Positions 6,792-32,044 of a DNA stretch of 32,816 nt are shown in pieces. The DNA lies in IMG/VR virus record IMGVR_UViG_3300037484_000317. One strand, given 5' to 3'. This stretch comes from a virus. Lineage: Duplodnaviria > Heunggongvirae > Uroviricota > Caudoviricetes. Position 1 is the stretch's first letter, and the number at the start of each line of letters is the position of its first letter. The notes below the pieces were generated by a model. That model searched no databases and was not told the origin of the DNA. It saw only the letters and a list, made by a program, of their open reading frames with translations. The position numbers and the translations under genes are program-made.

Positions 6792-6848
6792 AATGGATTA
6801 CGCTCCAACACAGGATCGGAAGGGTCGGGATTTATCCCCAGGGGATAT

Positions 6849-6985
6849 CGTTCGATTCAATCTCTGAACTCCGACACTCACGAGGCAATCCTCAGGTCGG
6901 TTCTCGCTTCAACGAGATCCGCTTCAGTTGCCTGAAGTCTTACAATCCCTCTGCGAGCAGTCACCGGAGTTCCTCCGGTCAGAAT
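6849..6985 (-). ncRNA. Putative TnpB omegaRNA (reRNA) scaffold overlapping the tnpB 3' end
   Basis: Hairpins ACCGGAG-GAA-CTCCGGT (6979-6963) and CTTCAG-GCAA-CTGAAG (6937-6922, GNRA loop); ends near GAACG at 6849; position typical for TnpB loci; boundaries approximate. Confidence 0.6.
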
Positions 6986-8125
6986 TCGTTCCCCATACGC
7001 TTGGAGATTGAGCGATGCGTTTTCATCCCTGTCGATGCTAAGACCGCAAGAGTCGCAGCAATAGGTCCGTGTCCCAAGGTCCAAGACCAGTTTCACGTTC
7101 CAGCACCTCGAACAGATCTTCGAGGATGGAAAGAATCGATCGGCTACGATCAATCTGACTCCGTACCACTCAGTCTTGTAGGTGAGCTGTCTGCGGACTT
7201 CCCCGAAGGAAGCTCCTGAGACTGCTCTTGCTAGCTTGTGATTCTTGACCATCCCACTGACGTTCAAGTCCTCAATGACGATCACCGAAGGTCGTTTGGT
7301 TTTCACGATCTCCGAAGTCATCTTGTGGATTACGTCGTTCCTCTGAAATGAGACTCGGGCATGGACGCGGGCAAGTCGGGCCTTCGTCTTTGCCCTACGA
7401 TTAGTTCCTTTCTTCTTCTGGCGATTCAGCCGCTTACTGAGTTTCTTGATTAACCGCTGGGAGGCATCAAGGTGCTTGGGATTTTCGTATAGAGTCCCGT
7501 CGGACAGGACTGCAAGGGTCTTGATCCCAAGATCAATTCCAAGTACGGGCCAAGTTGTCTCAACCTTCTTTGGTTCAGCGTCCTCAATGAGAACACTCAC
7601 ATACCAACGGCCAGCTTTCTCACTGATCGTAACCGTTTTCACGGGTCGGTCCGTAGGGACATACCCATGCTCTTTCAATCGGACACGACCAATCTTCGGG
7701 AGCTTGATTGAGGCGGTTGAAACAGAAACCTTCTGGGGGAACTGAAATGAAGCTCTACAGACACCCTTCTTCTTGAACTGGGGGTACCCAGGTTTCTTCC
7801 CAGCTTTCACGTTCTTGAAGAAGGATTGGAAGGCAGAGTGAAGTCGTTGAATTGACATCTGTAGAGTGGAGGCAGTGACCTCGGATAGCCAGGGATGAGT
7901 TGTAATCTTAATGATTGGCAATTGCTTTTGCAAATCAAAAGGCATCAAGGCCCCCTTGACTTTTTCACCCTCAGGTGTAGCCGACTTCTTCTCTTCGTAG
8001 TCCTTATTGCACTCACCCAACGCCCAGTTCCAAACATTCCTGGCCCCATCCGCATGGCGCTTGAACGCCGTGCGCTGGCAGTTGTTCGGATCGAGTTCTA
8101 CCTTGTAGGTTCGAAGAAAGGTCAC
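6878..8125 (-). CDS. tnpB: RNA-guided endonuclease TnpB (IS200/IS605/IS607 OrfB family)
   Basis: N-terminal HTH-like region; RuvC motifs LGIDLG, VIEDL, DRDENASLNL intact; CSRC...CDSC zinc finger; FFPSSKIC. Confidence 0.95.
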   Translation of the reverse strand: MTFLRTYKVELDPNNCQRTAFKRHADGARNVWNWALGECNKDYEEKKSATPEGEKVKGALMPFDLQKQLPIIKITTHPWLSEVTASTLQMSIQRLHSAFQSFFKNVKAGKKPGYPQFKKKGVCRASFQFPQKVSVSTASIKLPKIGRVRLKEHGYVPTDRPVKTVTISEKAGRWYVSVLIEDAEPKKVETTWPVLGIDLGIKTLAVLSDGTLYENPKHLDASQRLIKKLSKRLNRQKKKGTNRRAKTKARLARVHARVSFQRNDVIHKMTSEIVKTKRPSVIVIEDLNVSGMVKNHKLARAVSGASFGEVRRQLTYKTEWYGVRLIVADRFFPSSKICSRCWNVKLVLDLGTRTYCCDSCGLSIDRDENASLNLQAYGERILTGGTPVTARRGIVRLQATEADLVEARTDLRIAS

Positions 8126-8277: not shown

Positions 8278-8283
8278 ACAGTC

Positions 8284-8314
8284 ACTATACCCAAAGAGTA
8301 AGGTATAATGTCAA
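8284..8314 (-). promoter_or_regulatory. Sigma70-like promoter for a leaderless RHH-tnpB transcript, overlapped by a TATACC-N10-GGTATA inverted repeat
   Basis: Minus strand TTGACA-N19-TATAGT then 6 nt to ATG 8277; inverted repeat arms 8286-8291 and 8302-8307; the 19-nt spacer is atypical. Confidence 0.5.
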
Positions 8315-8355
8315 AAACGGAAGCTGGGTGTCTGCCACTTCGGTATAGTGCCCTT

Positions 8356-8502
8356 GTGCCGGGTTCACCTTGGGGTGTAAGCCTCAAGAGGCCGTCAGGG
8401 GCTACCCATTCCTGACCTACCTTCCTCTACGGAAGCGACCGCCCGGCACGTGTCGCAGTCCAAGGAACCATTTGTGCTTTTCGAGCGCGAAGGAAGGTAG
8501 TC
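8356..8502 (+). ncRNA. Structured RNA (omegaRNA/HEARO-like or cis-regulatory leader) upstream of the PLMP/RRXRR-like gene
   Basis: Stems 8356-8363/8442-8449, 8369-8376/8381-8388 (GTAA tetraloop), 8394-8400/8410-8416; long-range pairings 8417-8426/8491-8500 and 8435-8439/8452-8456; TATAGT at 8344-8349. Confidence 0.6.
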
Positions 8503-8504
8503 AC

Positions 8505-9674
8505 ATGTCCAAGACGATCAAAGTTCTCTCCGTCATTAACGGAGCGGAGGTAGAAGTTGCTACGTGCCATCCAGGTCAAGCCCGCATCCTACAGAAGCGG
8601 GGCCTGGCTAGCTGGAAGAGCGGGAAGCTCTATCTCATGGATTTGGCCGAGGCTGAGACTCCGGATGGGGAGAGTCCGAAAGATTCCGTAGTCCCGATGG
8701 GACCACTGGAGATCCAGGTAGCATCTGTCGTGGTGGGATCCACTCTTCAGGAGATTCTCGAAGACGCTGGTGTGGTGGACTACCTCGAATGGGCCGATCT
8801 GGTATCTACAGGAGGAGGGACTCCTAGAATGTCGAACGTAGAGGTAGATTCTACCGGGGCGCTCTTCCGAGAATTTGCACAGAGGATATCTCTGGGGCAC
8901 AAGACTCACTACTACGAGGACATACACGCACTCACGTTAGGATTCCTGGATTTAGATGCAGACGAGTATGTCTGCATGGCAATCTCTTGCTTGAGAAAGT
9001 CTTGGTCAAGTCAATCTGTGATCAACAAATTGGGGCTGGGATTGACCGCAGAACAAATCCAGGAGGCTCTTGGTACGAGAGAGGGTAGAGAGAAGCTCTT
9101 TGGACGGCAAGACAGCTTTTGGGGTAATGAGGAAGCCGAAACAGAAGAGGGACGGCCGATTCCGTATGGCCTTTGGGGAGAGGCCCCACAGACCCTGCTC
9201 GATACAAATCCTACTGTAGGCAGTTCGGTTAGGACTCTAAACCTCAGCCCTTCGAGCAACATTGATGAATTCCTAACAAAGCTCGACGCTGCCCACGATG
9301 GATTTCATTTCCCAACTTACCCTGGTTGGACTTCGTTCAAATGGCCAGGTTGTGAAGAGGTGCTCCCTGTCTTCGACGCCCCTGGGAGGGCCCATCCTCC
9401 GATTGGGCATGTGCGATTCAATGCCAAGGGTCACCCAGATAGAGGGTTTCGCTATGGTTTGTACCGCCGAGTAGGGTCCAAGCTCTATAGGGTGTGGAAC
9501 GAGGAACGCGAAGTTCATTGGGACGAGTCCATTTTGTCCGATGATGGGACCTATCGGCTCTCTCAGGAGTTTCACCACGACACCATGGTAAATGGTATGC
9601 CCCTCACATTTCGGAACGCAGTAGGGTGTGCGGAAGCTGCAATACGGGCCCAAGTAGACTCTCAAGGTGCGTAA
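8505..9674 (+). CDS. Protein with N-terminal PLMP/RRXRR-like domain and an unknown remainder
   Basis: IKVLSVINGAEVEVATCHPGQARILQKRGLASW resembles the IscB/IsrB N-terminus (VxVLxxxGxPLMPCHPARARxLLKxGKA); AGGAAGG RBS before ATG 8505; no RuvC or HNH motif seen. Confidence 0.65.
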   Translation: MSKTIKVLSVINGAEVEVATCHPGQARILQKRGLASWKSGKLYLMDLAEAETPDGESPKDSVVPMGPLEIQVASVVVGSTLQEILEDAGVVDYLEWADLVSTGGGTPRMSNVEVDSTGALFREFAQRISLGHKTHYYEDIHALTLGFLDLDADEYVCMAISCLRKSWSSQSVINKLGLGLTAEQIQEALGTREGREKLFGRQDSFWGNEEAETEEGRPIPYGLWGEAPQTLLDTNPTVGSSVRTLNLSPSSNIDEFLTKLDAAHDGFHFPTYPGWTSFKWPGCEEVLPVFDAPGRAHPPIGHVRFNAKGHPDRGFRYGLYRRVGSKLYRVWNEEREVHWDESILSDDGTYRLSQEFHHDTMVNGMPLTFRNAVGCAEAAIRAQVDSQGA

Positions 9675-9682
9675 CATGCTAG

Positions 9683-10378
9683 ATGACTCGAATTACCTTC
9701 ATCAGCGACACCCACGGCCAGCATGGCAAGCTCCGCCTACCTGCTGGTGACATCCTCGTACACAGCGGGGATTTCCTGAGCGGGCGGCTTCCGGACCAGG
9801 GCCTGAGGCTTCTCGAATTCAACGAGTGGCTGGATCTCCAGCCGTTCACCCACAAGATTGTCGTTGCGGGAAATCACGACCACCTTCTTGGCTTGTCAGA
9901 TCACGCAAGTGAATGGCGTCCTAGACTCACGAACTGCATCTACCTGGAAGATGAGGGCGTGGAGGTCGAGGGAATCAAGTTCTATGGTAGCCCGTGGACG
10001 CCCGATTTCTTTCCAGAGCACTGGGTCTTCAATCAGACCCGTGGTTCGGAGAAGACGATAGCGCGATGGGCGAAGATCCCCGATGACACTGAGGTGCTCA
10101 TCACGCACGGCCCACCGTACAAGGTTCTCGATCAGTGCGCAGATATCTACGCTCCGCACATTCCAGCGCATGTCGGGTGTTCCGATTTGAGGCGCAGAGT
10201 CCGTCACCTGAAGAACCTCAAGGTACATGCCTTTGGGCACATCCATGAGGGCGCAGGAACCATCGAAGAGGATGGCATCACGTTCATCAATGCCTCTTCA
10301 TTGGACGGCCGCTACAGTCTTCGGAAATCGCACTGCACTCAGTACGTTTTCAATTCGGATCCAACTCCAAAAGAGTAA
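9683..10378 (+). CDS. Calcineurin-like metallophosphoesterase
   Basis: SDTH, HSGD, AGNHD, ITHGPP and FGHIHE motifs. Confidence 0.92.
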   Translation: MTRITFISDTHGQHGKLRLPAGDILVHSGDFLSGRLPDQGLRLLEFNEWLDLQPFTHKIVVAGNHDHLLGLSDHASEWRPRLTNCIYLEDEGVEVEGIKFYGSPWTPDFFPEHWVFNQTRGSEKTIARWAKIPDDTEVLITHGPPYKVLDQCADIYAPHIPAHVGCSDLRRRVRHLKNLKVHAFGHIHEGAGTIEEDGITFINASSLDGRYSLRKSHCTQYVFNSDPTPKE

Positions 10379-10432
10379 TAGGGGACTGGGGCAACTACGT
10401 TCCCATTCCTACACGCGTCAAGCCGAGGCCTA

Positions 10433-19569: not shown

Positions 19570-20108
19570 CAACTTGGGTGATCCTTGAACCAATCCCAGG
19601 TGAGGGTGCCACGCACTTTCCTCCCAGGTGTGTGTGCGAGAAGCACCATGCGGAGAGTCTTGTGGCGGCTTGGGCTGAGAGGTTGGCTGTGGAAGAGCCG
19701 GATGGAATCCTCTCGACTGTGCGTCACAAGGAAACGTCAGAAGCCTGGCTTGATCTGGGTGGCATCATCCAGATCAACAGGAAAATCTACACCCTAAAGC
19801 CCATTGACGGACGGACTTTGACCGTTCCAGCAGGCCACGTAGAGGGCTACCTCAGCATGCTCAAAACTAGGGGGGAACGGGCTCCTGAGGAACTCGGTGG
19901 GATGCCATTCTATACGTTGCCTTCTATGCACCTGAGGATTCTACTCTCATTGTCTCAGTGCGACACCCTCGCACGCATACTCTCAGAAATCTCGATTGAA
20001 GCGGACGCGATTGCCACCATAGAAAACGATTTCTTCAACAAGTCGATCGCAGATTCGGACCATATGGTTGCACCCAAAAGACCCACCGGACGCATATCAA
20101 ATGAATGA
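19566..20108 (+). CDS. Hypothetical protein
   Basis: ATGA overlap; AAGGA RBS. Confidence 0.65.
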   Translation: MTTWVILEPIPGEGATHFPPRCVCEKHHAESLVAAWAERLAVEEPDGILSTVRHKETSEAWLDLGGIIQINRKIYTLKPIDGRTLTVPAGHVEGYLSMLKTRGERAPEELGGMPFYTLPSMHLRILLSLSQCDTLARILSEISIEADAIATIENDFFNKSIADSDHMVAPKRPTGRISNE

Positions 20109-30955: not shown

Positions 30956-31267
30956 ATGGCACAATATGAGATCACAAGATTGGATTCAACTCACGTTAGG
31001 GTCACTGGAACAGACCTAAGCAAACCTTGGATCATCCCAAATCGGGGCAGATTTAAGATTCAGTTGGGTTCAGAGGATGGGTTTGTGCATATCTCCGAGA
31101 CTGTAACGAAAGGTGTAGGGACCTTTGAGTCCTCTCCCGGCCCAAAGGGGAGTGCGGACATTACTGTTCATGGGTCTGGAACCACTCGTATTGTCGTTTC
31201 AGGGGGTGTTCTAAAGTGGCGTGGGCCACCCCGGTGGATGCCTCATCACCACATGGATATTACCTGA
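30956..31267 (+). CDS. Hypothetical protein
   Basis: AAGGAG RBS before ATG 30956. Confidence 0.55.
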   Translation: MAQYEITRLDSTHVRVTGTDLSKPWIIPNRGRFKIQLGSEDGFVHISETVTKGVGTFESSPGPKGSADITVHGSGTTRIVVSGGVLKWRGPPRWMPHHHMDIT

Positions 31268-31944
31268 GCAACCCGTCCCAGTTCCCTCGGATGTAGTCCT
31301 TGTAGCGGATCTGTTGGTTGGAGCGATGGTCGGTCACCCGATCATCTTGCTCACGAATCGTACGGATTTTGTCCCCACGCATACCCGAGCCAATCTGGCT
31401 TCGACGGGAGCTTGCACGCTCTTCAGTTGCAGCCGCTTGACGCGTCTCGAAGATACGCGCCCTTAGGACACGCATGGCTGTCTCACGATTCTGGTGCTGG
31501 GATCGTTCGTTCTCGATGCGAACACGCAGTCCAGTAGGGATATGGGTCATCTGAACTGCTGATTCCGTCCGATTCCGGTGCTGCCCGCCAGCACCGGAAC
31601 CCCGACAAGTCTGCCACTCGATGTCCTTGTCCTCGATGCGGAGATCATTCTCCCGAGGCTCTTCAAGGACCGCAATCGTAACAGTCGATGTTTGCACCCG
31701 ACCCCGCTTCTCATTAGGAGGCACTCTTTGCCAGCGGTGGCCTCCTGACTCCATGGCGAACACCTTCTTGGCGTTCTTGCCACTGGCTTGAAACGAGAGA
31801 TACCCGGAAGCCTCCTCTATGATGAGGCAGTCAAAGCCCCCTCCGCTCCATCAGCCGTGCATACACAGCGAACTGCTCACGAACAAGCGCCTTGGCATCC
31901 GCCCCACCTTCTCCGGCTCTGATTTCGACTATCACGCTTTCCAT
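31260..31944 (-). CDS. Class I peptide chain release factor-like protein (RF1-like, lacking domain 1), expressed through a +1 frameshift; about 227 aa
   Basis: ORF1 31944-31831 MESVIVEIRAGEGG...RRGL-stop; ORF2 31832-31260 with ESGGHRWQRVPPNEKRGRVQTS, GSGAGGQHRN, RSQHQNR, KIRT; GGAGG RBS. Confidence 0.88.
31830..31844 (-). promoter_or_regulatory. prfB-type programmed +1 ribosomal frameshift site
   Basis: GGAGG-GGG-CTT-TGA-C: internal Shine-Dalgarno, 3-nt spacer, slippery CTT, in-frame TGA. Confidence 0.88.
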
Positions 31945-31973
31945 TTTCACTGCCTCCAATGTTGACTACGGAG

Positions 31974-32044
31974 CGGTCCCGGCATGAATCGAACATGCCT
32001 AGCTGAGTTTAGAATTCAGAGCCTAACCACTAGGCTACGGGACC
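31974..32044 (-). tRNA. Amber suppressor tRNA, anticodon CUA (amino-acid identity uncertain, Trp- or Gln-like)
   Basis: Cloverleaf GGTCCCG-TA-GCCT-AGTGGTT-AGGC-T-CTGAA-TTCTAAA-CTCAG-CTAG-GCATG-TTCGATT-CATGC-CGGGACC-G; CCA not encoded. Confidence 0.9.

Follow-up and report, generated by a model that had tools for sequence, protein, structure and literature searches.

The locus and its neighbourhood

The window analysed here, a stretch of 32,816 nucleotides that belongs to a 160,816-base contig, appears to come from a large phage, judging from its gene content and from the homologs of the gene described below on IMG/VR contigs and on contigs of 270-288 kb. Its Pfam matches include NAPRTase, RNA ligase, metallophosphoesterase, VWA, ADP-ribosylglycohydrolase, radical SAM and a release-factor-like gene. 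Our analysis concerns an open reading frame at 8505-9674 (+), which encodes a protein of 389 aa (P0001), together with the structured 5′ leader RNA that directly precedes it (8356-8507, +). Oriented divergently from this gene are a TnpB gene of 415 aa (8125-6878, −), assigned by Pfam and carrying its D, E and D motifs at aa ~197, 284 and 365, and, overlapping it, an RHH-like gene of 51 aa (8277-8122, −), the Pfam match of which (E 0.0097) falls below the cut-off. The predicted promoter of this pair (8284-8314, −; TTGACA at 8314-8309 and TATAGT at 8289-8284, 19 nt apart) lies outside the module formed by the leader and the P0001 gene. The 9-mer GGTATA(G/A)TG occurs three times, once on the minus and twice on the plus strand, at 8283-8310 and 8342-8350, thus forming an inverted repeat, for which a phage promoter motif and an RHH operator are candidate readings.

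We regard the RHH–TnpB pair as an incidental neighbour of the module; TnpB adjoins the family gene in one of 18 loci, the window itself, and no relative of it was present at the 17 others compared. The idea that the leader represents the left end of a TnpB element was rejected because homologous leaders occur without TnpB. No transposase was seen next to the window's TnpB, the 3′ end of which (about 6820-7060), the expected place of an omegaRNA, folds strongly (z to −3.6).

The genes flanking the family gene differ between loci. Upstream of it, in four of the 18 loci, lies what we take, from its motifs, to be a ribonucleotide-reductase-like gene, and directly 3′ of it, also in four of 18 (L028, L033, L036 and L062), a conserved gene of 117-133 aa with a WPSGGLV motif. 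Clusters of tRNA genes are found just downstream on the opposite strand in three of 13 loci (four genes in L040, six each in L045 and L058). Elsewhere in the window, positions 2-2416 encode NAPRTase and, after it, a protein of 601 aa that combines CinA-like and cytidylyltransferase domains, together a phage NAD salvage pair. A tRNA with the anticodon CUA (amber suppressor; labelled Pyl by ARAGORN) at 31973-32044 (−) sits 210 nt upstream of the release-factor-like gene (31260-31763, −; 167 aa, RF-1 domain E 6e-33, GGQ present); no clear sign of TAG recoding was seen, one of 15 chosen window ORFs ending in TAG. Strong folding (z to −3.7) also marks 10060-10380 (−), a stretch antisense to where the metallophosphoesterase gene ends.

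P0001 begins with a PLMP domain

A preliminary description of this DNA likened the N-terminal ~45 aa of P0001 to the PLMP/RRXRR domain and named the Pfam RRXRR profile as a means of checking the likeness. With the threshold relaxed to E 10, that profile (PF14239) still matched neither P0001 nor fragments of its first 50 and 80 aa; it was profile–profile and fold comparison that bore the likeness out. When 117 family N-termini were compared by hhalign with 13 N-termini of IscB/IsrB, picked by motif from 38 RRXRR loci, the match reached a probability of 95.6% (E 1.1e-8) over 34 columns, while 30 column shuffles yielded at most 4.9%. AlphaFold models this part of P0001 (D1; aa 1-46, 8505-8642, +) as a four-stranded sheet with one helix at a pLDDT of about 90, and passages of PMC9581776 describe the PLMP domain of IsrB in the same terms. 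Among 48,161 chains searched with the D1 fold, the best five were IsrB and four IscBs, with middling Z values (5.5-4.3) and a clean ranking, and superposition on IsrB (8dmb) gave Z 5.5-5.9 and an rmsd of 1.5-1.8 Å over 42 residues. The first 46 aa of P0001 are thus a PLMP domain. Like the PLMP domains of IsrB and IscB (PDB 8dmb, 9k30, 9k2z), it is an N-terminal four-stranded sheet plus helix with a CHPxxARxL core; unlike in them, the PLMP motif itself is swapped for vGxC. CHPGQARILQKRGLA lies at aa 21-35. A second CHPxQAR-like string, at 19764 (−), was dropped, as it lies between stops and antisense to another ORF.

In the ESM Atlas, aa 1-55 matched at 0.91 a cluster in which 25% of members carry RRXRR. 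The same resource provided leads to PLMP-like heads on stand-alone proteins of 51-91 aa and on clusters with FtsK-gamma, DUF6076, HNH or NUDIX families. D1 is the only basic part of P0001, D2, D3 and the linkers being neutral or acidic, and by analogy with IsrB it presumably binds RNA. The suggestion that an RNA-binding module had been grafted onto an unknown effector stands as regards the PLMP head and its joining to unfamiliar domains, with RNA binding itself presumed from the analogy.

The remainder of P0001 and its family

A profile built from three N-termini retrieved 121 clusters at 50% identity, from which four long repeat proteins were dropped as noise, leaving a family of about 117 clusters; word-based searches missed most of its members. 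The head module is N-terminal in nearly all of these proteins, which are 200-700 aa long. That the part beyond the head lacks RuvC and HNH motifs, as first noted for P0001, holds across the family: no Pfam family exceeded the cut-off in any of 116 scanned homologs, no HNH Pfam match was found in P0001 or these 116, and RuvC-I-like and HNH-like patterns were each absent from all 119 family proteins scanned, with RRxRR present in one of them.

Residues 50-389 are nevertheless not featureless, since they contain two domains, D2 and D3, that are conserved across homologs. D2 (aa ~108-203; 8826-9113, +) has a beta-alpha-beta-beta-beta core with additional helices and conserved H, DDP, R, GFxD, K and GR; in P0001's own group, H132 is kept in 49, G146 in 51 and D149 in 47 of 51 sequences. 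D3 (aa ~270-389; 9312-9671, +) is a beta-meander with a C-terminal helix and conserved Arg and aromatic residues, and it is absent, single or doubled in homologs. By their C-terminal parts, the proteins sort into two linked groups, with 56 and 52 members, plus five singletons. As to domain make-up, 23 of 119 proteins carry D2 and D3, 23 D2 only, one D3 only and five doubled domains, and 67 have neither. Some homologs, among them L001 (1441-2598, aa ~310-345) and P0018, have at their end, instead of D3, a Walker-A-like stretch (GRQTGKT/RRTGRTT) that recalls, as we presume, a terminase ATPase fragment.

For aa 50-389, for which structure prediction and Foldseek had been proposed, fold comparison of the model gave weak likenesses for both domains, and RuvC and HNH folds were absent among the matches listed. 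D2 weakly resembles glyoxalase-type modules (Z 5.1, rmsd 2.7, 57 aligned residues) and D3 resembles MmoD (Z 6.3) and 2ra8 (Z 4.8), likenesses that concern common fold arrangements. The whole P0001 model returned nothing in Foldseek at E ≤ 0.001. The best hit of profile A3 against PDB sequences in hmmsearch was an unrelated protein at E 0.048, and PHROGs gave nothing for P0001. Among GenBank phages and plasmids, there was no real match.

A conserved, covarying leader RNA

Searching metagenomes with a DNA pattern that represents just the protein motif retrieved 34 loci, 19 with true family genes and 15 by chance. The leader is present at all 18 true loci with upstream DNA; of these, 15 match the model necessarily, having gone into it, and the other three are close copies of members of that set. 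We aligned 16 leaders (alignments A4/A6), that of the window and those of 15 loci, which represent one subfamily and come from a single motif search, leaving out L036 (no upstream DNA), L049 (incomplete), and L056 and L057 (duplicates). The motif spans about 125-160 nt in homologs, with a pairwise identity of 50-98% (mean 63%). The reality of the leader rests on comparative support, since its folding alone is modestly beyond chance (z −2.7, with 2 of 200 shuffles as good) and several nearby coding windows reach a similar z.

RNAalifold chose for this alignment the hairpins P2, P3 and P4, a helix GCGAC/GUCGC and a long-range helix NNACCU/AGGUNN. In this consensus structure, 95.1% of 368 cells are paired, compared with 32-50% in slid controls, and 10 of the 23 pairs change on both sides. 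None of 500 shuffles reached the observed values in four of five covariation measures, and nine reached the fifth, the structure being derived from the same 16 sequences, which favours it. The closing stem P1 (8356-8363/8442-8449, +), which closes a four-way junction, crosses the RNAalifold helices and is misregistered in the alignment; its test therefore consisted of exchanging 5′ and 3′ parts among the leaders. Among 13 leaders (three near-duplicates dropped), cognate halves scored 23.6 and non-cognate halves 14.2, a difference matched by none of 20,000 shuffles, and the cognate partner scored best in 11 of the 13.

Within the junction, P2 (8369-8376/8381-8388, +) is variable, and this extends to its loop: the GNRA tetraloop pointed out earlier is indeed there as GUAA at 8377-8380, and varies among homologs. 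P2 is followed by an invariant GAGGC (8388-8392, +). P3 (8394-8399/8411-8416, +) changes on both sides in four of its six pairs, and its GCU loop (8401-8403) is invariant in 16 of 16 leaders. P4 (8421-8425/8431-8435, +) and the GCGAC/GUCGC helix (8435-8439/8452-8456, +), which crosses P1 and is 96.3% paired, rest on one two-sided change each (in L038 and L054, respectively), the remaining pairs being invariant in the former and nearly so in the latter. The GCU loop could additionally pair with the equally invariant AGC at 8434-8436 in all 16 leaders. The invariant junction and loop bases comprise GAGGC, GCU, ACCU and GGAAGCGA.

All three pairings named in the preliminary description, one closing and two crossing, are perfect Watson–Crick complements, and the covariation among homologous upstream regions that it had called for was found, P1, P3 and the long-range helix showing compensatory changes. 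On these comparative grounds, the leader is an uncatalogued, covariation-supported RNA motif. No terminator-like site was seen between it and the ORF.

Three scans sought further leaders. DNA patterns for the RNA core picked out at least 120 viral loci (in 24 of 64 parts) and at least 120 genome loci (in 8 of 64 parts), and on none of the 119 plus 120 of these that were scored did the leader model R1 exceed 17.5 bits, compared with 79-120 bits for true leaders; leaders lacking the gene may accordingly occur beyond the parts covered. Another viral pattern scan gave 26 loci, of which the L001 phage alone was real; the pattern matches are mostly chance. A second subfamily of 56 proteins combines the PLMP head with a VSxxExxRRxAWFR helix. 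At the one locus found for it (L185 2868-2993), the same −10 box as described below precedes another kind of leader, about 110 nt long, which lies just after a tRNA-like sequence and is predicted to bury the Shine–Dalgarno (SD) sequence (z −2.2).

The ribosome-binding site is part of the leader fold

The SD sequence of the P0001 gene (8491-8498, +) ends 6 nt before the ATG at 8505. Its AGGU is one strand of the long-range helix, and in all 16 leaders this AGGT lies 4-8 nt from the start codon. The long-range pairing at 8417-8426/8491-8500, first described as a crossing helix, is a perfect complement as claimed; what it forms is an anti-SD helix that overlaps the hairpin 8421-8425/8431-8435. 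Its core (8417-8422/8495-8500, +), extendable to these 10 bp, is 97.9% paired, with two covarying pairs and half of the pairs invariant, in part explained by the SD consensus. In a swap test of the two variable pairs, from which relatedness was partly removed, 25 of 26 cells were paired, compared with 17.2 expected (p 5e-5).

Because of the overlap, the full-length anti-SD helix and P4 are mutually exclusive, whereas a short P4 and the six-pair core may form together, given that the change in L038 keeps P4 and breaks the extension. In stepwise folding, P1-P4 form as long as the SD sequence has yet to be made, and the state with the buried SD follows. The latter is the more stable by 5-21 kcal/mol in each of the 16 leaders, an overstated gap, as ViennaRNA models nested pairs and the crossing helices fall outside it. 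The leader may thus accommodate all helices in one compact fold or adopt two states.

The conserved promoter-like box leaves no room for a 5′ guide

Both boxes noticed earlier, TATAAT at 8304-8309 and TATAGT at 8344-8349, are present in the window, and they differ in conservation. The latter belongs to an extended −10 promoter-like box, GGTATAGT (8342-8349, +), the predicted promoter of leader and gene; in each of the 16 leaders, 3-6 nt separate the end of a box of this type from P1 (15 fit the pattern and L054 has a one-letter variant). The former belongs to a GGTATAAT box (8302-8309) that would add about 40 nt to the transcript. None of the 15 homologous leaders carries anything close to this box, L038 having a poor version, and it overlaps the predicted RHH–TnpB promoter. 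The earlier proposal of a 5′ guide transcribed from TATAAT therefore finds no footing in the homologs: with the conserved predicted box 3-6 nt before P1, there is no room for such a guide. The 43-nt segment that would serve as one has no other match in the window or the fetched loci.

Relation to OMEGA systems

The upstream RNA had been expected to resemble omegaRNA or HEARO, which the searches did not support. Rfam at E 10 gave nothing for the window's leader except a chance 17-nt match, and Rfam, HEARO included, did not match any of 13 homologous loci at E 1, while HEARO was detected in 15 of 20 IscB control loci. In the reverse direction, which is the sole test that covers omegaRNA types outside Rfam, R1 run without filters on 25 IscB/IsrB loci reached at best E 0.69. 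The leader shares with HEARO RNA (RF02033) a multi-stem, pseudoknotted architecture 5′ of a PLMP-domain gene, but neither matches the other, the helix order differs, and the models have 211 (HEARO) and 140 positions. Similarly, IsrB and IscB genes have a structured RNA directly upstream, with the SD sequence in its 3′ end; the omegaRNA holds it, however, in a local terminal hairpin, whereas here it pairs long-range into the RNA core.

Of the traits that define OMEGA loci, the module thus has the N-terminal PLMP domain. At the level of sequence, P0001 lacks the split RuvC with its RRxRR bridge helix and the HNH nuclease domain of IscB and IshB; no HEARO/omegaRNA scaffold precedes it, and the predicted start site leaves no space for a variable 5′ guide. 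Unlike the cargo of IS200/IS605-type elements, with their mobile, often multi-copy context, it is a single-copy phage gene with varying neighbours; a 288-kb phage record, 79% complete, contains one gene and one leader. The module is therefore not a member of OMEGA, although it would work like the PLMP–SD contact of OMEGA systems or like an autoregulatory leader. Ribosomal-protein leaders are autoregulatory leaders of RNA-binding proteins. With leaders of this type it shares a conserved leader able to bury the SD sequence of a gene for an RNA-binding protein, and it differs from them in protein fold, in the RNA, in the lack of any Rfam leader match and in its occurrence on phage-like contigs.

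Our literature search, outside the scope of which lay the supplements of the founding OMEGA papers, turned up no description of PLMP proteins that lack a nuclease and follow such a leader, and the terms PLMP, RRXRR, IscB and HEARO are absent from the main text of bioRxiv 10.64898/2026.10.21.760802.

Translational self-control as the proposed explanation

A nuclease-free PLMP head together with a leader able to pair with its own ribosome-binding site leads us to propose that the P0001 gene is subject to cis-acting translational self-repression by its own PLMP protein, to which we assign a probability of roughly 0.55. Instead of cutting DNA under the direction of a guide, P0001 probably regulates its own translation. 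Repression at the level of translation is suggested by contacts of the IsrB and IscB PLMP domains with SD-bearing or terminal hairpins. Passages of PMC9581776 describe how the PLMP domain of IsrB binds the 3′ hairpins and contacts the SD-bearing terminal hairpin, with control of expression proposed. According to corresponding passages of PMC9640706, that of IscB binds the terminal omegaRNA hairpins, mostly without sequence specificity and within a larger protein, and a 46-aa head may consequently not suffice.

In the proposed mechanism, transcription would start at P1, as predicted from the promoter-like box, and the nascent RNA would first fold as the four-way junction P1-P4. Once the SD sequence is made, the leader would rearrange or add the two crossing helices. 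The PLMP head would then bind the folded leader, as in IsrB, and the bound leader would hold the ribosome-binding site in the anti-SD helix, shutting off translation of the protein's own gene. That the effect would be repression rather than activation derives from the IsrB analogy. D2 and D3 would carry an effector function that needs dose control. The same box and the predicted SD-burying leader at L185 would count for translational self-repression as well.

The invariant bases of the leader exceed the needs of simple repression, and fit a ligand pocket or an RNP scaffold equally well. The leader could accordingly be a ligand or ion riboswitch, with P1-P4 and a pseudoknot as the aptamer, the anti-SD helix as the expression platform, and the PLMP protein binding some other RNA or the ribosome. 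The many invariant unpaired and junction bases and the competition between P4 and the extended anti-SD helix speak for such a switch, as do the compact size and the position, which are typical of translational riboswitches. Yet elements of this kind usually precede several kinds of gene, whereas among the loci scored, from pattern scans that covered 24 and 8 of 64 parts, the strong R1 scores all fell beside this PLMP family, and the controlled gene itself encodes an RNA-binding fold for which contacts with SD hairpins are known, so that we consider a riboswitch rather improbable. Much the same likelihood attaches to a guide-less RNP, in which the RNA, freed from the mRNA or working within it, would be a scaffold held by the PLMP head and acting with D2/D3 on host ribosome, RNA or DNA, SD burial being a by-product, as in omegaRNA. 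The OMEGA-like layout with the RNA directly 5′ of the PLMP gene, the complex conserved fold with its crossing helices, and the conserved Arg and aromatic residues of D3 suit such a scaffold; it is harder to reconcile with D2 and D3 coming and going while the leader is unchanged, with D1 being the sole basic part of the protein, and with no processing site or terminator having been seen.

Very unlikely, by comparison, is an OMEGA-derived RNA-guided RNP whose 5′ guide would come from the upstream TATAAT promoter. Its PLMP head was confirmed and the second box does exist in the window, but that box is without close counterpart in the homologs and the conserved one leaves 3-6 nt; moreover, the leader has no likeness to HEARO or omegaRNA, P0001's subfamily has no RuvC, HNH or bridge-helix motif, the gene is single-copy without a conserved transposase neighbour, and the 43-nt segment matches nothing else. 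We give the least credence to the leader being a ribozyme that cleaves itself, or a stability element that resists RNases, with no relation to the PLMP domain: either would suit a compact fold of several helices, some of them crossing, and invariant bases in the junction, placed at the very 5′ end of the transcript, but no Rfam ribozyme model matches, and the covarying SD pairing points to translation control.

The PLMP domain itself is familiar; what is new is a covariation-supported RNA motif and an unannotated family of large-phage proteins, which probably do not amount to a new programmable guided system. A bolder idea, which we put forward tentatively and consider doubtful, is that the PLMP domain with an SD-burying RNA is a free-standing module on many phage effectors, maybe borrowed by OMEGA nucleases, and that the leader is a double-pseudoknotted four-way-junction ligand sensor or the scaffold of a guide-less phage RNP that includes D2 and D3. 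Free of nuclease, the family offers a test bed for the proposal that PLMP domains control expression by holding the omegaRNA end with the SD sequence. Together, the 46-aa domain and its 140-nt leader could serve as a compact part for translational control. The family also bears on the origin of the PLMP domain in the ancestors of Cas9.
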